Program-made: the position numbers and the translations under genes
The notes under the pieces: model-generated
What the model was told of the DNA's origin: nothing
Seen by the model: the letters and a program-made list of their open reading frames with translations, nothing else
The model's database searches: none
Part shown: positions 10,064 to 62,967 of the stretch, piece after piece
Position numbering within the stretch: position 1 is the first letter of the stretch
How the letters are laid out: each line of letters begins with the position of its first letter
IMG/VR virus record: IMGVR_UViG_2690316068_000002
DNA from: a virus
Taxonomy: Duplodnaviria; Heunggongvirae; Uroviricota; Caudoviricetes
Strand: one strand, 5' to 3'
DNA: 64,000 nucleotides

Positions 10064-10136
10064 TTCTTGCTCCTACAAAAAGGGTGGGCGTATAGCCCAC
10101 CCTTAAACATAGATAATTACTTATCTACCACACTGA

Positions 10137-11946: not shown

Positions 11947-13521
11947 TCACTCGTTCTCTTGAGTAGATGAGTCCCCATTCCCTCGGGGTTGATCTTGCCC
12001 GCTTTCTTGGGCTGCACCACGATCATAAGTAAGTACTGACTTATTTTCAAGGGTATTTAGATCATTTTTTGGAGGAAAATTCAAGAGATCTTTATCAAAT
12101 TCCTTTTTCATCGCCTCAGTAATGTTCGGGAAAATCTTCTCAATAAGCATTTCCATCTGGTGACGACGTACAGAGTCCGGTGCCTGAAGTAATGACAGTT
12201 TCTCGGCAACAGAAAATTCATCAGTAAGGCCACGAATATCGAAACTTTCTGGATACGCAATTAAAGAGTGGTCTTCGTCCAGATCTACCCCCATCCATTT
12301 CGCAACCAGTAGCATGATTTGGCGTTCAGCCCTTTCCAGACGCTCTGCTTTTGTGACAAGCAAGCTATTTACACGCTGGAAGTCATACATTTTTGCGGCA
12401 CCAGATGAATTATCGATTCCCTGTGCGTTGTCCTGCTTCGTTCGCTCACCAGCTACACCAACTGAATGGTAGATTTCGTTAATCACCGTCTTAATCGTAG
12501 TGATGATCATCTGAGCTTGTTTCGGGTCTGGTGACAGATAAAACGGCTGGTTTCCACCTTCAGAATCGTAGGTGAAGACTCGCTTTGTGCCCATTTCAAG
12601 CACTTTAGTGTGGTTTTCATCACCAGGTAAAAGCGACTGTACCGGTATAGCCAACTGGCTAAATGTCTGATCCTGAATAATGGCATCAAGGTTTGACAGA
12701 TAGTTTGCAACCGCACGATCAAGATAAGCGATATCATCGATCAACGATGGGCTGAAATACGGTGATTCACTTTCTCCAATACAATCAACAGGAAACACAG
12801 GAACTACGCCGAGATTATGCGCGCCGCTGTCCTCTAAAATAACTTTTGCCTGACGACGACCTGCTCCACCAGCCCCCTTCTTCACTTCCTCACGGAACAG
12901 ATACCACTCGTTTTGTGTCCACAGACGATAACGTTGGTATTCCTGACCTGTAGAAGTAAAAGGATCTGCGTCATCGCGAGCGACTTCCACAATTAACGCC
13001 CATAACATATTCCCGTCGTCGTCCCATGCCACATCCAGCATTTGCTGAGGTGAAATCCAGTAGGCGTAGGCGCGAGCATCTTTCTTTTTCTCGTCAGCTA
13101 CTGACTCAACATCACCACTCATCGTGCTATCGACAACAACCCATATGCGACCGTAAATAGACGACTGCAAATCAATAGCGGCCATAAATGAGTCAATAGA
13201 GGCATTCTGGCGAGTCGCACGTTTCCAGAAATTGCGGATCTGCTCTGGTGCCTCTTCGATATTTCTATGAATGTCTTCTTTAAAGAGATATTTGTTGATG
13301 AGGTTTACCACCTCACGAGTGTGGTTGAAGCGATAAGCACGCTCAACTCGCTCCTTAAACTCCTGATCTCCCTCTTTAAAGTAACGAAAGATATTGTCTG
13401 TAAACCAACCACGCCCGCCAGCGTAAGTGCTGGCGAGGAAGTCCCAATGTTCTTTTTTCTTTTCGTATTCCGGGTGGCGTCGCGCCACCAGATCCTTAAT
13501 TTGTTTGTCGTTCAATTCCAT
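11947..13521 (-). CDS. Portal protein
   Basis: 524 aa, immediately downstream of large terminase and upstream of scaffold; acidic C-terminus. Confidence 0.7.
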   Translation of the reverse strand: MELNDKQIKDLVARRHPEYEKKKEHWDFLASTYAGGRGWFTDNIFRYFKEGDQEFKERVERAYRFNHTREVVNLINKYLFKEDIHRNIEEAPEQIRNFWKRATRQNASIDSFMAAIDLQSSIYGRIWVVVDSTMSGDVESVADEKKKDARAYAYWISPQQMLDVAWDDDGNMLWALIVEVARDDADPFTSTGQEYQRYRLWTQNEWYLFREEVKKGAGGAGRRQAKVILEDSGAHNLGVVPVFPVDCIGESESPYFSPSLIDDIAYLDRAVANYLSNLDAIIQDQTFSQLAIPVQSLLPGDENHTKVLEMGTKRVFTYDSEGGNQPFYLSPDPKQAQMIITTIKTVINEIYHSVGVAGERTKQDNAQGIDNSSGAAKMYDFQRVNSLLVTKAERLERAERQIMLLVAKWMGVDLDEDHSLIAYPESFDIRGLTDEFSVAEKLSLLQAPDSVRRHQMEMLIEKIFPNITEAMKKEFDKDLLNFPPKNDLNTLENKSVLTYDRGAAQESGQDQPRGNGDSSTQENE

Positions 13522-13547
13522 TTGAATAACCTTAGATAATTACTTAC

Positions 13548-14804
13548 CTATCTAGAACCACCAAGAATAACACGGTTTTTGACTGGATACCTACGATGTA
13601 CTGGATAGCCCAATGCGTCTGCACTATGCTCAATGCCACCTGTCTTATCCATATCTCGTGTTCCAGGCTTGTAGATGACTTTTTCCAATGAATCAATCAA
13701 ATGCTTGCACTTCGGATCGATATACAGCCGGATATCTCCAGATGCGGTCATCAGCATTCGGTTAACAGCATTAACACGATCCGCAATTGGCGGGTGCTTT
13801 TTCGAATAATCGACACGTAAGAATCCCTTCTCTTTGAATATGTCGACGTCAGACTCCCCGCGAGCATGTTGGCGATAAGCACCTGCCGGATCTGGAAATA
13901 CCGTTATCTGTGATTTCCAGCGCCAGAAGCGTCTCTCAAGCTCATCACAAACCTCTGCCGTGTTAGAGGAAAAGAGCACCAATTCATCAATTGCCCATAG
14001 CTCACCATTTGGCTGAGGTTGCAAAATTACTGAAGACATCGGGTCAATGTTGAAGTCCTGCCCTACCCATATAGGCAACCGAGGGTTGAACTGAAGCGGT
14101 TTTACATGCACGTTACGATCGAACGGGTAGTAAACGCGCCCGGACATGTTCTCAAAGCTCGCCAGGTACTCCTGAGCGAACGATTTCGGGTCCATATCGT
14201 TCTTAGCAGCTTCAATTTCCGCCGTAGGCACAAACGGAGAATCAGCAGTTACAAACTGCCAGCTCTTCCACTGTCCCTTTCTTTGCAGCTCTACGTTCTG
14301 GCCTATAGTCCACAGTTTGTGAAATTCCGAGAAGCCTTTTGGCGTACCAATGATCAGTGCACCGCCGCGTGTCGATGAAAGAGTAGGTCGTAACACCTTG
14401 TACCAAGTGTCAGCCTTCATATCCTGAAATTCATCAAGCACTACAAAATGCAACGCTACGCCGCGCAGAGTGTCAGGCTTATCAGCACCTTTGAGGGCGA
14501 TCTCCGAACCGTTCTTCAACACGATTGTCATCGTGGTGTCGTTCTTTTTCCTAACCCACTTACGAGGCAGAACTTCCTGTAGATCGTCCCACAAAATCTG
14601 GCGAGCCATCTGGTAAGTAGGAGCGACATACCAGACCCTTTGCTTTTTTTCCTTTGCCGCCGCACGAATAATAGTGGAGATCGACAACCGGGATTTTCCC
14701 CAGCGTCGACCAGCACAAACAACTTTAAATCGATGCGGAGACTGGAAGACTTTCATCTGTCCAGAATGCAGTTGCACAAGACTGAGCGAGGACGGGATTG
14801 CCAT
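13548..14804 (-). CDS. Terminase large subunit
   Basis: 418 aa; Walker A (CAGRRWGKS), Walker B (HFVVLDEFQD), C-terminal nuclease-type acidic motifs (WVGQDFNIDP). Confidence 0.85.
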   Translation of the reverse strand: MAIPSSLSLVQLHSGQMKVFQSPHRFKVVCAGRRWGKSRLSISTIIRAAAKEKKQRVWYVAPTYQMARQILWDDLQEVLPRKWVRKKNDTTMTIVLKNGSEIALKGADKPDTLRGVALHFVVLDEFQDMKADTWYKVLRPTLSSTRGGALIIGTPKGFSEFHKLWTIGQNVELQRKGQWKSWQFVTADSPFVPTAEIEAAKNDMDPKSFAQEYLASFENMSGRVYYPFDRNVHVKPLQFNPRLPIWVGQDFNIDPMSSVILQPQPNGELWAIDELVLFSSNTAEVCDELERRFWRWKSQITVFPDPAGAYRQHARGESDVDIFKEKGFLRVDYSKKHPPIADRVNAVNRMLMTASGDIRLYIDPKCKHLIDSLEKVIYKPGTRDMDKTGGIEHSADALGYPVHRRYPVKNRVILGGSR

Positions 14805-18158: not shown

Positions 18159-18823
18159 ACCAGAGCCTCACCAGCGTTCTCCATTTCATTACCGGTGTTA
18201 ATAGCCTGCTCTTTGATGATGTTTTTTATGGTTTCTGCAACACGATCTGACGCATCGAAAGTTACTTTGAAGCGCATGGTCTGATGTTCCGCCCCCACAC
18301 GTTCGGTTTTCTCTCGTTTGTCGGTATCGACAGGCTCATCACTACCACGAGACAACGCCTCCAGTGCTTCAAGGTCGATTGCCGCCTCTTTTGCTAAAAC
18401 CATCGAGATTTCGTCGTCATACGGGGCGATTTCAGACAGTTGATAGTCAAGTTCTGACTGAATTTCTTCAATGAAGCGTTGCAATGCGATTTGGTCGTCT
18501 TCACCGTATCGCTCGTTGTCCACCAGTGACATCTGTTTAGCTACGACATCGCTAATTTTGCCCACAGAAAGCACCGGAACCGTTGAAATTCCTTGCTCAA
18601 TAGCAGCACGCCAGCGATGTTCGCCGCCGAGGATTTCAAAAAATCCATCTTCAAGTTCACGAGCCAAAATTGGCTTAAAAAAGCCCAATTTTTCGATAGA
18701 ACCTTTCAGTTTTTCAAAATTCTGCGCACCAACCGAATTGGTGTTCCAGGTATTCGGGCGAAGGTTGGCAACATCAACCTGCAAAATCGTGATTTTTACA
18801 TCCATTTTATTGCTACAATCCAC
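18125..18823 (-). CDS. ParB-like nuclease domain protein
   Basis: 232 aa; ParB-box-like ILGGEHRWRAA. Confidence 0.55.
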   Translation of the reverse strand: MDCSNKMDVKITILQVDVANLRPNTWNTNSVGAQNFEKLKGSIEKLGFFKPILARELEDGFFEILGGEHRWRAAIEQGISTVPVLSVGKISDVVAKQMSLVDNERYGEDDQIALQRFIEEIQSELDYQLSEIAPYDDEISMVLAKEAAIDLEALEALSRGSDEPVDTDKREKTERVGAEHQTMRFKVTFDASDRVAETIKNIIKEQAINTGNEMENAGEALVWLVDYYKERM

Positions 18824-18887
18824 TAAGTAATCACTTACTTATTATAATAGCCAAATAACATACAAAAGGCACTAAGGAAAGAGGTTT

Positions 18888-30903: not shown

Positions 30904-32937
30904 TTACTTAACTTGGTGGCCTGGTTTAGCACCAGCATCCGGGCTTAACAGGAAGATATCTTTTCCGCCAGGGCCAGCAGCCATCACCATGCCTTCAGAG
31001 ATACCGAAGCGCATTTTACGCGGAGCCAGGTTAGCCACCATAATTGTGTGACGACCAATCAGTGCCTGTGGGTCTGGATAAGCAGAACGGATGCCTGAGA
31101 AGACATTACGCTTTTCACCACCGAGATCCAGTGTCAGGCGCAACAGTTTGTCAGAACCTTCAACAAACTCCGCGTTTTCAATCAGCGCCACACGCAGGTC
31201 AACTTTGGCGAAGTCGTCAAAGGTGATGGTTTCCTGAATCGGGTCGTCAGCCAGTGGGCCAGTTACCGGTGCGGCTGTGGCTTTCACTTCTTCTTTGGAT
31301 GCTTCCACCAGTGCTTCCACCTGTTTCATATCGATACGGTTATACAGTGCCTTGAACGGATTCACTTTATGGCCCAGCAGCGGTTGCTGGATACCATCCC
31401 AGGTCAGTTCTGTATTCAGGAATGCTTCTGCACGTTCAGTCAGTTTCGGCAGTACCGGTTTCAGGTACGTCATCAGCACGCGGAACAGGTTAATGCCCAT
31501 AGAGCAAATCGCCTGCAGATCGGCATCGCGCCCTTCCTGCTTCGCCACCACCCACGGAGCCTGTTCATCGACATAGCGGTTAGCCAGGTCAGCCAATGCC
31601 ATGATTTCACGGATAGCTTTACCAAATTCGCGGCTTTCCCATGCTTCGCCAATCACTTCAGCGGCATCAGTAAAGGTTTTGTACAGTTGCGGGTCAGCCA
31701 GTTCGCTTGCCAGCACGCCGTCAAAACGCTTGTTGATAAAGCCTGCATTACGGGAGGCCAGGTTAACCACTTTGTTCACGATATCGGCATTCACGCGCTG
31801 AACGAAATCCTCCAGGTTGAGATCGATATCATCAATGCGCGAAGAGAGTTTCGCAGTGTAGTAGTAACGCAGGCTGTCGGCGTCAAAATGATTCAGCCAG
31901 GTGCTGGCTTTAATAAAGGTGCCGCGAGACTTGGACATCTTCGCGCCGTTCACCGTCACATAGCCATGAACAAACAGGTTGGTCGGCTTGCGGAAGTTGC
32001 TGCCTTCCAGCATGGCAGGCCAGAACAGGCTGTGGAAGTAAACAATATCTTTACCGATGAAGTGGTACAGCTCGGCGGTGGAGTCTTTCTTCCAGTATTC
32101 ATCGAAGCTGGTGGTATCGCCGCGCTTGTCGCACAGATTCTTGAAGGAACCCATGTAGCCAATCGGCGCGTCCAGCCAGACGTAGAAATATTTGCCCGGC
32201 GCGTTCGGAATTTCAAAACCGAAGTAAGGCGCATCTCGGGAGATATCCCACTGTTGCAGGCCGGATTCAAACCATTCCTGCATTTTGTTCGCCACCTGCT
32301 CCTGCAACGCGCCGCTGCGGGTCCATGCCTGCAACATTTCGCTGAAAGAAGGCAGATCAAAGAAGAAGTGTTCGGAATCACGCATTACCGGGGTAGCGCC
32401 AGAAACCACCGATTTCGGCTCGATCAATTCAGTCGGGCTATATGTTGCGCCGCAGACTTCACAGTTATCGCCGTATTGATCTGGCGCTTTACATTTCGGG
32501 CAGGTGCCTTTTACAAAACGATCCGGCAGGAACATGCCTTTTTCCGGGTCGTACAACTGAGAGATAGTGCGGTTTTTAATAAAACCGTTCTCTTTCAGGC
32601 GAGTATAGATAAGCTCAGACAACTGACGGTTCTCTTCGCTGTGCGTCGAGTGATAGTTGTCATAGCTGATGTTAAAGCCTGCGAAATCAGTCTGGTGTTC
32701 CTGACTCATTTCGCCAATCATCTGCTCCGGTGTGATACCAAGCTGCTGTGCTTTCAGCATGATCGGCGTACCGTGGGCATCGTCGGCACAGATGAAATTA
32801 ACCTCGTGGCCGCGCATTCGCTGGTAACGAACCCAGACATCAGCCTGGATGTGCTCCAGCATATGGCCGAGGTGGATTGAGCCGTTAGCGTACGGCAGCG
32901 CGCACGTCACCAGAATTTTCTTCGCGACTTGGGTCAT
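30904..32937 (-). CDS. metG: Methionyl-tRNA synthetase
   Basis: 677-aa product from [29 protein letters not shown] (HIGH motif), KMSKS motif, C-terminal tRNA-binding domain; near-identical to enterobacterial MetG from memory. ORF-track upstream extension (to 33066) rejected. Confidence 0.95.
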
Positions 32938-33094
32938 AGTAGGCATTACTTCTTTGTAGTGAAAAGGGGCTTGATAGTAACAAAATGGCCTTATGTCTGC
33001 CATGTGATAACAGCATTTCTCATAAATGATTAAATGTCGTAGCTGGAGTACACTACAAGGCGACAATTGCGCAAATTAAAATAAAGGAGACGGG

Positions 33095-34195
33095 ATGAGC
33101 GAGTCCAAATCGCCGGATGCCCTGAGAGCAATGGTAGCCGGTACGCTGGCTAATTTTCAGCACCCAACCCTGAAACACAACCTGACTACGCTTAAAGCGT
33201 TACACCATGTTGCGTTGATGGATGACACACTGCATGTCGAACTAATCATGCCTTTCGTGTGGAATAAGCCTTTTGAAGACCTGAAAGAGCAATGTAATGG
33301 TGATCTGCTCCGTATCACTGGCGCAAAGGCTATTGACTGGAAGCTGTCGTACAACATTGCCACGCTTAAGCGCGTCAAAAACCAACCAGGTATTAATGGC
33401 GTTAAGAACATTATCGCCGTCAGCTCAGGCAAGGGCGGCGTGGGTAAATCCTCCACGGCGGTAAACCTGGCACTGGCGTTGGCTGCTGAAGGTGCGAAAG
33501 TTGGTATTTTGGATGCCGATATCTATGGTCCATCAATTCCAACCATGCTGGGCGCGGAAAACCAACGTCCAACCTCACCTGACGGTACTCACATGGCACC
33601 TATCATGTCTCATGGCCTGGCAACCAACTCTATTGGTTATCTGGTCACCGACGACAATGCAATGGTGTGGCGTGGACCGATGGCCAGCAAGGCGCTGATG
33701 CAGATGTTGCAGGAAACTCTATGGCCTGATCTGGACTATCTCGTTCTCGATATGCCGCCGGGCACTGGTGATATTCAGTTGACGCTGGCGCAGAACATTC
33801 CTGTAACTGGTGCGGTTGTGGTAACTACGCCGCAAGACATCGCGCTGATCGATGCGAAGAAAGGCATTGTGATGTTCGAAAAAGTCGAAGTGCCGGTACT
33901 GGGTATCGTCGAAAACATGAGTGTGCATATTTGCAGTAACTGCGGTCATCACGAGCCAATTTTTGGCACCGGTGGCGCACAGAAACTGGCCGAGAAATAC
34001 AACACGCAGTTGTTAGGCCAAATGCCACTTCATATCTCTCTTCGTGAAGATCTGGATAACGGAACACCAACCGTTATTAGTCGTCCAGATAGCGAATTTA
34101 CGGCTATTTATCGTGACCTCGCAGATCGCGTTGCTGCCCAAATGTATTGGCAAGGTGAAGTAATACCTGGCGAAATCGCATTCCGCGCAGTGTGA
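33095..34195 (+). CDS. apbC: Fe-S cluster carrier ATPase ApbC/Mrp
   Basis: 366 aa; P-loop SSGKGGVGKSS, CxxC motif (CSNCGHH), divergent from metG as in enterobacterial chromosomes. Confidence 0.9.
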   Translation: MSESKSPDALRAMVAGTLANFQHPTLKHNLTTLKALHHVALMDDTLHVELIMPFVWNKPFEDLKEQCNGDLLRITGAKAIDWKLSYNIATLKRVKNQPGINGVKNIIAVSSGKGGVGKSSTAVNLALALAAEGAKVGILDADIYGPSIPTMLGAENQRPTSPDGTHMAPIMSHGLATNSIGYLVTDDNAMVWRGPMASKALMQMLQETLWPDLDYLVLDMPPGTGDIQLTLAQNIPVTGAVVVTTPQDIALIDAKKGIVMFEKVEVPVLGIVENMSVHICSNCGHHEPIFGTGGAQKLAEKYNTQLLGQMPLHISLREDLDNGTPTVISRPDSEFTAIYRDLADRVAAQMYWQGEVIPGEIAFRAV

Positions 34196-41391: not shown

Positions 41392-41452
41392 GTGTTTTTC
41401 TCTTATCGTTTAGTAACTACATTCTTACACAAATTAGGTAAGTATTTACCTA

Positions 41453-43138
41453 TCATTTAACGCGTTTGAAAACGTATACGCTGACTGTGATCCCTGTGTC
41501 TTCAAACTCGTTGGTAAACGACTTCCCTCTGGCATAAACGTAATTATCCATCGTCATCCAGTCCAGTATTGGCGCAGTGCCCGGCAATACTGCTACAAGA
41601 CGCCCGCCGACTTTCAGATGCCCCAGCGCAGCCAGCGTGTGCTCTCTATGACGACCAAGCGAGTACGGCGGGTTCATAACGATTTTGTCGAACTGATAAC
41701 CTACGTTGTCCTCAGACCACTTTATGAAGTCGCAGCAAATCGTGTTCGTATACCCTTTTCCGCGCAGGATATCAGCGAAGAGAGGTGCGATTTCTATGCA
41801 GGTAACATCTTCCAGATCGGCGTTGATATAGGCCAGAAGATCCCCACGTCCGGCTTGAGGCTCCAGCAGCTTCTCACCAGACTTCAATTCAGTGGCTCTG
41901 GCAACGTACTCAGCAATCAAGCGTGGGGTAGGGTAGAACTGGTGTGATTTTGTATCCGGTATTAATCCGGTAGCCACAATCGTATTTAGCGTATGGCCGA
42001 TCTCATACGGGAACTGCCAGTGCTTTTTCTCCTGCACGCCGCCAATGAAGCTCAGTGTGCGCTCAAGCTCTTCCACCTGCGACTTCTGGAGAGCTGAATC
42101 AGAGAAGTACCATACGCCTTTGTCTTTGCTTAATCGCCCGTCACGAAGCGCAGTGCGAACCGGCACGGAGATCGTCTTCTGGATTAACCCGAACTGCTTT
42201 GGTGCCCGTGTTTTTGGCGCGGTGCGACATGGCGCGGGGATTGCAGCAGGCATACTGTAAGCCAGCACCTCATTCAACTTCCAGGCCACGTCAGGATGTA
42301 TTTCAAAGTGAACGTTGCCGTTCTTGAACATCTTCACGCGCATTAGATTTCCATCGACGTTCATCCAGTCACCGGTCTGGCAGTCGTTTGCCCGATACGC
42401 AGCTGATAGCACCTCAGCAGTGCGGTTGATGGTAATAAATTCTTTGTGCGCGAAGAAATGAAGCAAGACACGCAGATCGTCGATATAGTCCTCTTTGCGA
42501 TAGTTCACACTAACGCTGTCCCGCCAGAAATCAGAAATGCAGTCAGCGATTATCAGACGTTCGCTGAAACCGTTTGTCTTATTTGTCTTGTGCGCAGGAC
42601 TCAGCGCCTTAAACAAGCCATACACGCGCTCAGAGAGATATTTGTGCCTGTCATTCAGCAAATTAAGCATCGTGGGTATGACCGTTTCTGCTTTGAACTC
42701 CGGTACACCAACGAACTCTTTAACCTTCATCTGGTAGCCGGTTCTGTCAGTTTTGATGACTTCCTGTTTGCCCTCTATAAACTGCTCGCGCCACTCATCT
42801 CGACGGGAAGCTGGCATGATCAGCAAAACGTTAGTCATGTCCGTGACCTTCCTCCAGTACTCGGCCCAAATATTCTGTTTCACCCATTCCAGATCGACTT
42901 TATCCAACCAACCTCGATTTAAACGCGAGCGATCTTCATCTGGTCGATGGTTTAGTCTCAGCAGGCGATTAATCATGTTGTGGCGTTCGTCGCCATAAAC
43001 GAAGTCGTGTACCTGATACATGAAGGCGATCTCTTTCTCGCACTCGGCCACAATTTCGTGGATGACGTTCATTTCCTGCCGATAGTCGATAGCAGTGTTT
43101 GAGTTGGCATCGTCGATGATGGAAAGGGCTGTATTCAT
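41453..43138 (-). CDS. DNA methyltransferase (amino-MTase, NPPY motif) with large N-terminal domain
   Basis: 561 aa; C-terminal AdoMet-binding-like EPQAGRGDL followed by catalytic NPPY. Confidence 0.65.
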   Translation of the reverse strand: MNTALSIIDDANSNTAIDYRQEMNVIHEIVAECEKEIAFMYQVHDFVYGDERHNMINRLLRLNHRPDEDRSRLNRGWLDKVDLEWVKQNIWAEYWRKVTDMTNVLLIMPASRRDEWREQFIEGKQEVIKTDRTGYQMKVKEFVGVPEFKAETVIPTMLNLLNDRHKYLSERVYGLFKALSPAHKTNKTNGFSERLIIADCISDFWRDSVSVNYRKEDYIDDLRVLLHFFAHKEFITINRTAEVLSAAYRANDCQTGDWMNVDGNLMRVKMFKNGNVHFEIHPDVAWKLNEVLAYSMPAAIPAPCRTAPKTRAPKQFGLIQKTISVPVRTALRDGRLSKDKGVWYFSDSALQKSQVEELERTLSFIGGVQEKKHWQFPYEIGHTLNTIVATGLIPDTKSHQFYPTPRLIAEYVARATELKSGEKLLEPQAGRGDLLAYINADLEDVTCIEIAPLFADILRGKGYTNTICCDFIKWSEDNVGYQFDKIVMNPPYSLGRHREHTLAALGHLKVGGRLVAVLPGTAPILDWMTMDNYVYARGKSFTNEFEDTGITVSVYVFKRVK

Positions 43139-46283: not shown

Positions 46284-46428
46284 GTGGACTCCATCCAGTG
46301 TCAGAAAGAGTTGCGGCTGGCGATTGCCAGCCGCCTTTCTCGTTCCATCCTGGAACTGTGTCTTACCGACACATTGTCATCCTGACGCCGATAAGATACA
46401 TGATTTAAAATGATAGGTAAACACTTAC

Positions 46429-47022
46429 TTACTGCTTGTTGTAAACAAAACCAATATCTTTCTTGTGAGGCATATCTGCTGCGGAAAAAGCTGCGATCTT
46501 CGCGAGTCGATCACATATTTCATTTTCACGATGCCCGGCGTGACCTTTAACCCACTTCCAGCGAACATTATGTCGACTTGCAGCCTCATCCAGACGCTTC
46601 CACAGATCAACATTCTTTACCGGTTTTTTATCAGAAGTCATCCATCCATTACGTTTCCACCATTTCATCCACTGTGTCATGCCGTTTTTCAGATACTGGC
46701 TATCAGAGTACAAAATAACGTTGCATGGATATTTCAAACGCTCCAGCCCGATAAGTGCGCCCATCATCTCCATGCGGTTATTGGTGGTGCTATGAAAACC
46801 ATCTGAGAACTCGCGTTCCTCACCACGATACTGGAGAACGATACCGTAACCGCCCGGGCCACCCGGATTTTTAAGGCAAGAGCCATCACTAAAGATTTTC
46901 ACGGTTTTGAGCTGGGGATTGAACTCTACGACAGGCGTTGTGGGATTGGTGCGGGGAGATTTTTTGTTTTTGGCTTTTTTGCGAGTTTTTGCTTGCGATC
47001 GGGCTGGTGTCTTCGTCGTCAT
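46429..47022 (-). CDS. Ribonuclease H (RNase HI-like) with basic N-terminal extension
   Basis: Core IFSDGSC...GYG..L..R....S.TTNNRMEM...Y.DS.Y matches RNase HI active-site architecture; start placed at the Met preceded by GGAG. Confidence 0.75.
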
Positions 47023-47074
47023 ATAAACTCCTGAATCAAGCGCCGCGCCGATTTTTTCCTCGCGCGTGCGCACA

Positions 47075-47604
47075 CGCGTGCGTGTTAATAATTATTAAAA
47101 TAAACAAATTACTTCCCAGAACAGGTTTTTATAAACCTGAACTGAACGAACGAAGTGAGTGAAGTTCACCTCGAACGAAGTGAGAGGTTGTCTTTTCAGG
47201 TAATACTCTCCCAGGGAGGTGAGTATAAAATTCCTCACCAACCTGGTCGTTTCATAACCTGAAAAGCTATGGTCTAAGTCTACTGCCAGCTTAGACTTGG
47301 GAAGTTATGGATGACAGCACCCCAGAACCGAGATCTTCCCACACTTTATGAAGGGGAGTACTGGATTCAACCTCTCGAAACACCCCAGACTCGACAATCA
47401 TAAAGTGACCCTTGTCTCTGCTCACTTTGGTTCCCCCTTCCCCGACACCTAAACGGCACCGGTTCTACGCTGGTAGTGAGCTTTTTTAAACCTGACGCCA
47501 GTGACGCTTACCCCCACCCATCAGGTCGAGTCTCCAGTCTACGACTGGAAACTATCAGATCTTAGCACTTACAATTCACTTTATAAATAGTTTGTACTTA
47601 TCTA
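47075..47604. other. 530-bp intergenic region without ORFs
   Basis: Direct repeats (cgaacgaagtgag x2), hairpins (ggtgag...ctcacc), C-rich tracts; no ORF of 60 aa or more on either strand. Confidence 0.5.
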
Positions 47605-47859
47605 TCATTGTGATTGATTATTTTCTCGACCATGTAGTTGAACATTCAAGGCAAACACCTCATTGATCAACTCACCTAAAAGCTGTTCAACAAGTTCGCG
47701 ATGCTCGCCAAGATGCAAGCACTTAATTGCCCACTCGTACAAGTTGAAAGCCTGCTCACGATCTTTCATCATTTCACGAGCCTGGGCCAGAAAATCGCTC
47801 TCTACGAGCGCAACGACATTAGTCGGGTATGACATGTTGGTTTCCTTAAAGTGGTTCAT
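47605..47859 (-). CDS. Hypothetical protein
   Basis: 84 aa ORF. Confidence 0.45.
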   Translation of the reverse strand: MNHFKETNMSYPTNVVALVESDFLAQAREMMKDREQAFNLYEWAIKCLHLGEHRELVEQLLGELINEVFALNVQLHGRENNQSQ

Positions 47860-47940
47860 AAAATCGATTTTAAAGCGTCTGGGAAGGGGTTCTAGTGGAT
47901 TCTGTAGTGATGTTCAGGTCTGGAGTCTCTGATACAAAAC

Positions 47941-47999
47941 AGCCTGCTTCCGTATATTAATAATTAATATGTAGTTATTTATATATACAGAAGCAGGCT
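47941..47999. repeat. 59-bp AT-rich palindromic element, copy 2
   Basis: agcctgcttccgtatat...atatatacagaagcaggct; same arms as the copy at 15551-15609. Confidence 0.8.
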
Positions 48000-48020
48000 A
48001 ATTACAGACGCCAGAACAAA

Positions 48021-48614
48021 CTAAGCAGCCTTCTTTGATGGTCTTTTTTTCCTGATCACATTCGCAGGATCATACCCTCCCAGACTTTTCATGACGTCCA
48101 AAGGGATCTTGCTTATAGAGTGCCCAGCGTCCTGACAGAATCCTCGAAAAACAACGAGCATACTGCCACCGGGGTTGATGTTTACTTCTACCTGACCCAA
48201 ATTGACGTCAGGCTCGACAAACGCTACGCGGCCACCAGACAGAATAATCGTCTCATTCGCATACTCTGTTGCACGCTCATACCACTTTGTATCGAGGGAT
48301 TGAGGAATTAGCATCACTGTTGTAACTCCGCGAGCCTGCTCACGTATAGCAGCATCAATCCAGGGGGAGATTTTGGAGTAGGGTGGATTGAGGAAGGCAA
48401 TTGTACCTGGCTGTCCCCATTCAGATTTCAAAGCATCACGCTCAATGCCTATGAAATTAGGCAGCTTTGCGTTGTCCTTGTTGCAGGCAACGTCAACATC
48501 AAATGTCACTCCAAGATAACGTTGAATGGCAGAAAACAGCCAATCAGGTGTTCTCCAGAGGTCACGAAGAGAGTTGTCGCGCTTTCGCTGTTTGATTTTT
48601 TCGGCTGCAATCAT
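48021..48614 (-). CDS. DNA N6-adenine methyltransferase, phage Dam-like
   Basis: 197 aa; catalytic NPPYS motif in a small phage-type MTase scaffold. Confidence 0.7.
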   Translation of the reverse strand: MIAAEKIKQRKRDNSLRDLWRTPDWLFSAIQRYLGVTFDVDVACNKDNAKLPNFIGIERDALKSEWGQPGTIAFLNPPYSKISPWIDAAIREQARGVTTVMLIPQSLDTKWYERATEYANETIILSGGRVAFVEPDVNLGQVEVNINPGGSMLVVFRGFCQDAGHSISKIPLDVMKSLGGYDPANVIRKKRPSKKAA

Positions 48615-48623
48615 CTTCTTTCT

Positions 48624-48652
48624 CGATAGGTAAGTGATTACCTATTTTTGCA
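48624..48652. promoter_or_regulatory. Palindromic intergenic motif family 2, representative copy
   Basis: tcgATAGGTAAGTgatTACCTATtttt; about 14 related copies in intergenic positions across the window. Confidence 0.5.
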
Positions 48653-53448: not shown

Positions 53449-53618
53449 AAAAACCTCACAAAGATAAGTAATTACTTATTCATCGTGTGAGTTTACATTC
53501 ATTGAGAGAACAAGACCAGACAGATAAAAAAATGGTGGCCATAGGCCACCAAAACGAATAGTCATTCCAGAGTTTTATTACGCATGTTAAATATACACAG
53601 ATAGATAACTACCTACAA

Positions 53619-58124: not shown

Positions 58125-58197
58125 GTATCACCAAATAAAGAGGGCCACTAAATATAGTGGCCCATGTTAATAGATAAGCACTTACCTATCAATGAAA

Positions 58198-62741: not shown

Positions 62742-62967
62742 GTGTTTTTCCTTTGTGGTTATTTTGATACAGATATTAAGTGTGTTTGAGAGGCGAACAA
62801 TCCAGATAACACGGCCATTAAGAATGTTCACAGACACATGATTATGGCAAATTCATAGGTAAGTGAATACCTATTTTTATGGGCAGCAAAGATTTCTAGA
62901 TGTTACAAGCCACTCTATAATCGCAGTCACTTAATGATGACAACCAAACGAAAAAGGAGAACTGACG

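Follow-up and report, generated by a model that had tools for sequence, protein, structure and literature searches.

The 64,000-nucleotide stretch of DNA considered here (IMG/VR record IMGVR_UViG_2690316068_000002, hereafter the window) is an SSU5/pHCM2-type phage-plasmid of Escherichia coli, and between its RNase HI gene, rnhA, and a gene for a 76-residue protein lies a long gap free of genes. Comparative analysis indicates that a structured RNA is very probably encoded on the minus strand of this gap. Our account as a whole, which we regard as probable, is that the gap encodes a large structured non-coding RNA of no described family, of ~450 nt and running on the minus strand from ~47553 to ~47100, which acts in trans as a scaffold or decoy. 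Taken by itself, the role of a trans-acting folded scaffold or decoy, made alongside the early replication genes, is a tentative proposal. Sequence comparison marks this as a large structured RNA of a new family. It is common among phage-plasmids of Enterobacteriaceae and has a counterpart, not homologous to it, at the same position in other lineages.

An initial annotation of the window, made from its letters alone, had delimited the gap as 530 bp. The gap is real, but the gene-free span is larger, at 582 bp (47023-47604), because the annotated start of rnhA lies at 47022 rather than at the GTG at 47073, and the 76-residue gene ends at 47605. Its description as unusually long holds against neighboring gaps in the operon of ~10-190 bp. 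Its hairpins are also real, since shuffled versions of either strand fold less well (z = -3.3 and -3.7), and the C-rich tracts noted on the plus strand are the conserved G-rich segments of the minus-strand RNA. Of the three roles that had been offered for the region (structured RNA, origin, or regulatory region), the first is strongly backed by comparative covariation, the check that had been proposed for it, which additionally supplies the strand that had been left unspecified.

Conservation, Covariation and Strand

A BLAST search with the gap alone matched 687 PLSDB plasmids and 12 phages, with a conserved block corresponding to window positions 47028-47530. The region is carried by 232 of 5,426 complete E. 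coli genomes (~4%), nearly always on a plasmid, and no feature is annotated under the match in any of the listed E. coli records. In a nine-way alignment, positions 47108-47530 are almost invariant, and the flanking genes vary mainly at third codon positions. Identity of this core across genera is 89-95% (SSU5 95.3%, a Klebsiella pneumoniae plasmid 90.8%, a Citrobacter plasmid 95.5%), compared with an overall 74-81% for the flanking coding sequences; gene by gene, the values are 76-82% for rnhA, 75-78% for the gene of the 76-residue protein and 75-76% for Dam. Because a non-coding stretch here evolves several times more slowly than its coding neighbors, the core is under strong selection.

Among 57 unique close relatives, few columns of the core vary, and the few variable positions already pair as compensatory changes, with G·U intermediates that are legal on the minus strand only. 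Divergent lineages were gathered by searching with the neighboring 76-residue protein. These comprise the A' clade (plasmids of Cronobacter sp. JZ38 and Enterobacter sp. CP102), whose RNA is 68% identical to the type found in the window (type A), together with lineage L205, lineage L203, which carries extra inserted hairpins, and the very divergent lineages L201 and L202. From an alignment of 25 sequences that includes the A' clade (A4), RNAalifold predicts 96 pairs, 33 of which show compensatory double changes. Standard pairs make up 99.3% of the cells of this structure, a share that drops to 33-49% once the 3' partners are shifted by 1-3 columns. The shifted controls contain 1-6 compensated pairs, and none of 500 column shuffles matches the observed values. 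In a more diverse alignment of 12 sequences (A5), 48 of 82 pairs are compensated.

The A4 structure holds 299 G·U cells, and its fraction of paired cells falls from the above value on the sense (minus) strand to 87.1% for the mirrored plus-strand structure. Because the G·U cells pair only in the sense reading, the RNA is assigned to the minus strand. Different pair types are contributed by at least five lineages. Altogether, the covariation shows that at least 13 predicted helices have been kept by strand-specific selection, acting via compensatory changes across at least five lineages. A covariance model built from the central 143 nt (R1) finds a single copy in the window (47270-47413, minus strand, 168 bits), and also recovers L201 and L202, which had been left out of model building (E = 6.5e-9).

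Exact-pattern scans of IMG/VR with the conserved motifs returned SSU5-like contigs as the only true matches; in unrelated stray contigs the element was not matched, or the probe motif alone was matched. For AACCTCTCACTNCGTTCGAGG, the RNA segment with the strongest conservation, a 21-nt exact match containing one N was found at positions 6304-6330 of contig L180, and also in L177 and L186. It sits inside a 442-aa open reading frame (ORF) of an unrelated phage, where it could form an 8-bp hairpin. We take this match as chance, because ~0.2 are expected in such a collection by our estimate and the three contigs represent one phage.

Predicted Anatomy of the RNA

The features of the locus are collected in Table 1, and are described here in the sense (minus-strand) reading. 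The predicted promoter, of the form TTTAnn-17-TAnnAT, keeps its position in all lineages (A, A' and the type B described below), and its spacer varies in sequence. In SSU5 the promoter scan flags the homologous site TTTAAA-17-TAAAAT, extended by TG, and it also flags that of a type-B plasmid. Directly after the predicted start lies a hairpin whose arms differ between lineages and always pair (CCAGUC/GACUGG, CCGGA/UCCGG, UUUCGAC/GUCGAAA, and GCUGGCAGA/UCUGCCAGC), a predicted arrangement typical of stabilizing 5' stem-loops.

Within the core, several helices enclose invariant single-stranded segments. Helix P4 encloses invariant UACCAGCG, hairpin P5 and purine-rich GGGGAAGGGGGAACCAAAG; P8 encloses P9 (five pairs, three compensatory) and P10, along with invariant AGAGGUUG and UCCCCUU; and P11 encloses P12 and invariant AUCUCGGUUCUGGGG. 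Further towards the 3' end, the inner part of the long hairpin arm corresponds to RNAalifold helix 15, and its outer helix competes with RNAalifold's local hairpin P14; folding each lineage separately favors the long arm. Segment AAGGGGG may additionally form a pseudoknot with UCCCCUU. The evidence for it is suggestive only, comprising one compensation in A' (G-C to A-U), the L201 partners GCAGGAG/CUCCUGC, and duplex energies of -13 to -20 kcal/mol in all lineages.

The short direct repeat that the initial annotation had described, the 13-mer CGAACGAAGTGAG, is present in exactly two copies, one in the loop of each of the tandem hairpins P16 and P17. By our estimate, the chance of an exact 13-mer pair within ~500 bp is ~0.002. 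Distant lineages keep the tandem hairpins, but of the repeat only CUUCG survives in their loops; the exact 13-nt repeat is therefore a trait of the common lineage. Beyond the tandem hairpins, conservation stops abruptly at 47108 (UUCUGGGAAGUAA) and gives way to a variable U/A-rich stretch (47083-47107). The conserved GC-rich palindrome that follows is probably not part of the RNA core, and could be a translational or processing signal for rnhA.

Table 1. Features of the candidate RNA locus, its neighbors and the dispersed palindromes, in window coordinates.
Feature	Position	Strand	Remarks
20-bp operator-like palindrome, degenerate copy (sense GATAGATAAGTACAAACTAT)	47587-47606		Abuts and overlaps the -35 of the RNA promoter; a lineage-specific palindrome stands at the same place in A' and type B
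Predicted sigma70-type promoter	47559-47587	-	-35 TTTATA 47587-47582, 17-nt spacer, -10 TAAGAT 47564-47559; start predicted at ~47553
5'-terminal hairpin (UUUCCAGUC GUA GACUGGAGA)	47531-47551	-	Sequence varies, structure kept
Predicted RNA, ~450 nt	47100-47553	-	5' end from the promoter; 3' end (uncertain) from the conservation stop at 47108, then a U-rich stretch
Conserved core, 423 nt	47108-47530	-	Identity and covariation
Helix P3, long hairpin with invariant GAUGGGUGGRGG	47490-47526	-	13 pairs, 4 compensatory; 100% of cells paired
Helix P4 (CUCAC/GUGAG)	47421-47480	-	47480-47476 with 47425-47421; 5 pairs, 3 compensatory
Candidate pseudoknot, 5' half AAGGGGG	47433-47439	-	Partner UCCCCUU
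Candidate pseudoknot, 3' half UCCCCUU	47351-47357	-	Partner AAGGGGG
Helix P8 (CACUUUAUG/CAUAAAGUG)	47342-47407	-	9 pairs, 3 compensatory; part of covariance model R1
Helix P11 (UGGGAAG/CUUCCCA)	47298-47341	-	7 pairs, 3 compensatory; becomes AGGAAGG/CCUUCCU
Hairpin P13 (GUCUAAGCUG...UAGACUUAGAC), conserved CUGGCA loop	47272-47296	-	10 pairs, 5 compensatory; G·U intermediates valid on the minus strand only
Long hairpin arm (CUUUUCAGGU...ACCUGAAAAG enclosing CCAGG/CCUGG and GGUGAG/CUCACC)	47192-47266	-	Predicted as one long hairpin in every lineage, arms compensated
Tandem hairpins P16 (CCUC/GAGG, 47187-47169) and P17 (UGAACU/AGUUCA, 47168-47138)	47138-47187	-	P17 with 3 compensatory pairs; P16 invariant in A and A'
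13-nt repeat, copy 1 (RNA reading CUCACUUCGUUCG)	47172-47184	-	Loop of P16
13-nt repeat, copy 2	47147-47159	-	Loop of P17
Conserved GC-rich palindrome (CGCGCGTGCGCACACGCGTGCG)	47058-47082		Between the RNA and the rnhA ribosome-binding site
rnhA, RNase HI with basic N-terminal extension	46429-47022	-	Pfam RNase_H E = 1e-45 and annotation; downstream neighbor of the RNA, may be co-transcribed
Gene for 76-residue protein (phrog_5343)	47605-47835	-	Constant upstream neighbor of both RNA types (A and B) and of the hotspot
20-bp palindrome, copies	29-48, 10109-10128, 12025-12044, 13532-13551, 18823-18842, 41434-41453, 48626-48645, 53464-53483, 58170-58189, 62855-62874		
20-bp palindrome, further degenerate copy	46413-46432		The other degenerate copy is that at 47587-47606

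Probable Independence from rnhA and a Counterpart RNA (Type B)

The gene behind the RNA is rnhA in most elements, and type-A RNA and rnhA are likely co-transcribed, as no intrinsic terminator is seen between them. The association is broken in several lineages. In Enterobacter hormaechei p1_020038 (L008) betT stands in place of rnhA behind an intact RNA, with the breakpoint inside the GC-rich palindrome; in A' the intact RNA is followed by a DUF7557-like ORF, and in L201 by a 183-aa ORF without a Pfam hit; and the type-B plasmids L089-L091 keep the RNA with a convergent gene behind it. Because the RNA is intact where rnhA is gone, these cases argue against both a dedicated rnhA leader and an obligatory RNA/RNase H primer system, and suggest that the RNA is probably not merely an rnhA leader.

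In SSU5-like Klebsiella plasmids that are more distantly related, an equally large gap at this locus is filled by a ~480-nt structured RNA of different sequence, which we term type B. It is carried by Klebsiella oxytoca pCAV1099-111 (L082 3226-3795, corresponding to NZ_CP011594.1 108940-109509) and ~30 other Klebsiella plasmids, and is also found in L083, L085-L091, L171-L173 and L206-L208. The type-B layout comprises a palindrome, a TTTACT-17-TATGAT promoter, a 5' hairpin, ~450 nt of covarying helices, and finally a hairpin with a U8 terminator. No homology between the A and B RNAs was detected by nhmmer (with single and expanded profiles), by shared k-mers or by covariance model R1, although their divergence may exceed detection. 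In L206 and L207 a type-B-like RNA is combined with a type-A-like backbone, whose 76-residue protein is 70% identical to that of the window; A and B RNAs have therefore been exchanged between backbones. This replacement at one locus suggests two interchangeable solutions to one task. The same two elements, L206 and L207, have two rnh genes in tandem behind the type-B-like RNA.

In still other relatives, the slot behind the gene for the 76-residue protein is occupied by different cargo: ParE/MazE/HicAB toxin-antitoxin modules in Xenorhabdus (L198 and L199), an inverted 426-aa gene and rnh in Morganella (L200), and a type I restriction subunit in Moellerella (L084). Neither RNA type was detected in these Xenorhabdus, Morganella and Moellerella relatives. 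Judged from its gene content, the locus behaves like a variable accessory hotspot.

Alternative Explanations

The alternative that survives best, though we consider it unlikely, is that the region is a cis-acting leader of rnhA and the genes behind it, either as a long 5' untranslated region that senses a signal, or as an attenuation or processive antitermination element (of the HK022 put, EAR kind) that controls read-through. The position of the RNA is as such a leader would have it, directly behind a promoter and, in most elements, directly ahead of rnhA. Type A lacks a clear terminator before rnhA, type B has its strong hairpin and U8 terminator between RNA and rnhA in a classic attenuator layout, and the two tandem hairpins recall the HK022 put RNA. 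However, the downstream gene is not constant (rnhA, the DUF7557-like ORF, betT, the ORF without a Pfam hit, or the convergent gene), and the RNA is intact throughout. Moreover, at 430-480 nt and with at least 13 helices it is far above known attenuator and antiterminator RNAs in size, and A' does not preserve the one terminator/antiterminator-like alternative pairing of the E. coli sequences, in which CUUCCCA pairs with either copy of UGGGAAG.

An origin of lytic replication is a distinctly poorer candidate, and in our judgment improbable. On an R-loop model like that of ColE1 or T4, the minus-strand transcript, being G-rich, would persist in an RNA-DNA hybrid and be trimmed to a primer by the phage RNase HI. 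The RNA does adjoin rnhA within a replication and nucleotide-metabolism operon, its transcript carries G runs, and an AT-rich variable stretch (47083-47107) follows the core; ColE1 RNA II, for its part, is of comparable size and extensively folded. Against this, the type-B RNA is closed by a canonical intrinsic terminator that would free it from the template, and the RNA is kept where rnhA is absent (although host RNase HI could substitute). Nor were landmarks expected of an origin found. Repeats are limited to two copies, and neither iterons nor repeated boxes were seen; the cumulative GC skew passes 46-48 kb without inflection; no plus-strand promoter-like site for an RNA I-type antisense transcript was found within 47100-47530, where a promoter scan is a weak test, and there is no Rfam RNAI (RF00106) match. 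Conservation ends abruptly at 47108, rather than continuing through a priming site and a downstream primosome site. The origin option of the initial annotation is thus disfavored, and the constraint observed is strand-specific at the RNA level.

We place still less weight on a structured single-stranded DNA signal, such as a single-strand initiation, primosome assembly, recombination or packaging site, which appears highly improbable. G·T pairs are tolerated in folded single-stranded DNA too, so the strand-specific covariation alone would fit DNA, and known ssi/sso elements are strand-specific hairpin clusters. Yet a conserved promoter, correctly oriented and constant in its spacing, frames a transcript together with the hairpin that opens it and, for type B, the terminator that closes it; the at least 13 helices and candidate pseudoknot of the element extend over 420 nt, far larger than known ssi/sso signals; and no XerCD-, cos- or iteron-like repeats were seen.

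Small protein-coding genes that had been missed carry a negligible probability: mechanical ORFs of 30-48 aa occur on both strands, and to that extent the gap is not ORF-free as first described, but each lineage has its own set of ORFs, with no conserved member, indels of 1, 2 and 7 nt separate the lineages, the 179 positions at which A and A' differ favor none of the three phases (63/62/54), and nucleotide identity exceeds that of nearby real coding sequences with no third-position pattern. By these comparisons the gap region is not protein-coding, having neither a conserved frame nor a codon-position pattern. The initial annotation had held that a lack of both conservation and a transcript, or a small conserved protein gene, would speak against its candidate; the conservation is exceptional, and there is no conserved ORF.

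A trans-acting RNA gene thus remains our preferred account, and several points weigh against it. Most of the compensations trace back to a small number of deep splits (that of A from A', L203 and L201), and independent events are fewer than the cells counted. The outer helix of the long arm and the pseudoknot are out of register in the MAFFT alignment, and rest on per-sequence checks. Both RNA ends are placed from sequence rather than mapped on transcripts, and the promoter of the window itself scores 8/12, just under the threshold of the scanner. No intrinsic terminator is recognizable between type-A RNA and rnhA, and the RNA could accordingly be the 5' part of the rnhA mRNA, acting in cis. 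Finally, the role in trans is a guess for which no partner has been identified, and the neighboring 76-residue protein offers no informative fold match.

Proposed Mechanism

Under the account of a trans-acting RNA gene, host RNA polymerase would transcribe the RNA from its own sigma70-type promoter. The -35 element abuts the operator-like palindrome that recurs before many early-operon genes, such that the RNA would be switched on with those genes, and a regulator that binds the palindromes possibly controls it. The transcript would open with a protective, stabilizing 5' hairpin, and the folded RNA would bind at least one protein in trans, serving as neither rnhA leader nor replication primer. 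Candidate contact sites are the invariant purine-rich junctions (GAUGGGUGGRGG, GGGGAAGGGGGAACCAAAG and AGAGGUUG) and the two tandem hairpin loops. No site complementary to the repeated loop was found elsewhere in the 64-kb window.

Several specific roles were considered and set aside. The 76-residue neighbor has no fold, Pfam or informative PHROG match that would mark it as a Rop-like RNA-binding protein. A CsrB-like sponge was rejected on a manual count of 7 GGA motifs in ~460 nt, which equals the chance expectation. Similarly, an anti-Shine-Dalgarno mimic in the long arm (UCACCUCC) was discarded, as its sequence is not kept in A'. A type III toxin-antitoxin system, in which ToxI-like tandem ~36-nt repeats lie by an endoribonuclease toxin, was also dismissed, given the presence of only one 13-nt repeat in two copies 25 nt apart; the neighbors here are RNase HI, Dam and the 76-residue helical protein.

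A more speculative extension, which we hold to be doubtful, is that the A and B RNAs form a new class of phage-plasmid "effector" RNAs, large, autonomously folding and trans-acting during induction, that occupy the accessory hotspot and are swapped from backbone to backbone in the manner of anti-defense genes. Such an RNA might be a decoy or scaffold that neutralizes a host nuclease or defense protein, or might organize the phage replication machinery. If this were true, and if the RNAs multimerized as do GOLLD and ROOL, RNA-only assemblies would be extended to clinically common and genetically tractable elements of Enterobacteriaceae.

Relation to Known RNAs

Rfam 15 (4,227 families) was searched at the gathering threshold over the whole window, and permissively, with E values up to 10, over 46900-48100. 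No match in the window reached the gathering threshold. The permissive search, of this interval and also of A', gave only sub-threshold matches, largely to eukaryotic microRNA, small nucleolar RNA and long non-coding RNA models, and type B gave no match at all. The Rfam/Infernal scan that had been proposed for the gap is therefore negative, indicating that the RNA is not a known family. ARAGORN found no tRNA or transfer-messenger RNA (tmRNA) in the window, and covariance models of GOLLD, ROOL, OLE and HEARO gave no match.

By analogy, the closest RNAs in kind are GOLLD and ROOL, the likeness being one of size and phage location. As in those RNAs, several hundred nucleotides with many covarying helices and pseudoknots (here a candidate) are carried by temperate phages with no single downstream gene. 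Work of Weinberg et al. from 2009 and 2017 is said to place GOLLD and ROOL in similar genomic contexts and to regard them as interchangeable. Such interchange resembles the replacement of A by B at one locus. The present RNA differs in being shorter (~450 nt), in not lying beside tRNA genes (the window has none), and in its hosts, which are Enterobacteriaceae phage-plasmids, whereas GOLLD and ROOL come from Lactobacillales and from rumen or lake organisms. Multimerization of GOLLD and ROOL has been shown (bioRxiv 10.1101/2024.12.08.627333).

Other well-known RNAs share some of these traits. ColE1 RNA II is likewise a sigma70-transcribed (here by prediction), highly folded RNA of ~500 nt, with G-rich segments, in a plasmid-like replicon and with a link to RNase H, which here consists of gene adjacency. 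It differs in that the present RNA has no RNA I gene or promoter, is kept without rnhA and shows no skew signal, and in that type-B RNA ends in a terminator. The HK022 put and EAR elements similarly follow closely on a promoter, lead a long series of co-oriented genes and include tandem hairpins, and in type B a terminator comes directly behind; however, the present RNA is 4-6 times larger, its downstream genes are not constant, and it has no Rfam similarity to such families. The c4 RNAs of P1/P7 and the CI RNA of P4 are also non-coding RNAs of temperate elements whose sequence type varies among related elements, but these are antisense RNAs of 70-80 nt with identifiable targets, whereas the present RNA is six times larger and has no loop target in the 64-kb window.

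Our literature search turned up no description of an RNA, an origin or a regulatory element for this locus of SSU5/pHCM2-type elements, and no characterization of lytic replication or early gene control in SSU5-type phage-plasmids; the RNA could nevertheless be among the 10,006 candidate viral structured RNAs catalogued in 2023 (PMC10690425). A 2026 preprint on phage-plasmid heteroresistance concerns another family.

Bacteria and phages rarely have structured non-coding RNAs that exceed 300 nt and covary strongly, and the large RNAs described earlier (RNase P, group I and II introns, tmRNA, OLE, GOLLD and ROOL) have each been catalytic or structurally unprecedented. The present candidate is an unannotated RNA found in ~4% of complete E. 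coli genomes and in hundreds of phage-plasmids of Klebsiella, Salmonella (including the Typhi plasmid pHCM2) and Enterobacter, and its carriers also spread resistance genes. Unlike GOLLD and ROOL, it is experimentally tractable, as the carrier phages SSU5, Cyrano and PhiR41_1 plate on E. coli K-12 and Salmonella LT2, and the second, non-homologous RNA at the same locus provides a natural swap experiment. A giant leader or an R-loop primer, if either were true, would also be new biology for this group of phage-plasmids.

Genomic Setting and Dispersed Palindromes

The 1 kb around the gap is 100% identical to the E. coli plasmid pRHB31-C19_2 (CP057251.1), and 80-99% identical to Salmonella phage SSU5, Escherichia phages Cyrano and PhiR41_1, Klebsiella phage-plasmids and several hundred PLSDB plasmids. 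Over more than 30 kb around it, nearly every gene lies on the minus strand. This early module is devoted to replication and nucleotide metabolism, and contains nrdAB, thyA, a dihydrofolate reductase gene, a 3'-5' exonuclease, Dam and rnhA. The phage RNase HI carries a ~40-residue Lys/Arg-rich N-terminal extension, with its RNase_H domain spanning residues 40-178. The plasmid-mode replicon of SSU5-type elements is of the IncFIB/RepA type by plasmid typing, and is sited elsewhere.

AlphaFold models the 76-residue protein as a confident three-helix unit (predicted local distance difference test score 85). It belongs to no Pfam family and to a PHROG family without assigned function, and Foldseek against the PDB returned nothing below E = 4. 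When GTDB representative genomes were scanned with this protein, only two Kluyvera contigs were found.

The palindrome beside the RNA promoter belongs to a wider set. A 20-bp palindrome with consensus ATAGGTAAGTACTTACCTAT occurs in at least 10 copies in the window, where none is expected by chance, and usually stands 10-60 nt upstream of a start codon or beside a sigma70-like promoter. Other palindromes take these places in related lineages: TAAATAGC..GCTATTTA in A' and TAAGTAA..TTTACTTA in plasmids with type B. The set is distributed as scattered operators for a lineage-specific regulator would be, much like the dispersed C1 operators of P1. The 20-bp palindrome is probably what the initial annotation had called motif family 1 and had reported as not obvious in the gap, along with an iteron repeat. 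There is indeed no iteron-like array, but a degenerate copy of the palindrome, presumably of motif family 1, is present at the right edge of the gap.

At 30904-34195 the window carries host-like metG (methionine-tRNA ligase, minus strand) and apbC (plus strand); the locally positive GC skew of this stretch suggests an acquired chromosomal segment.

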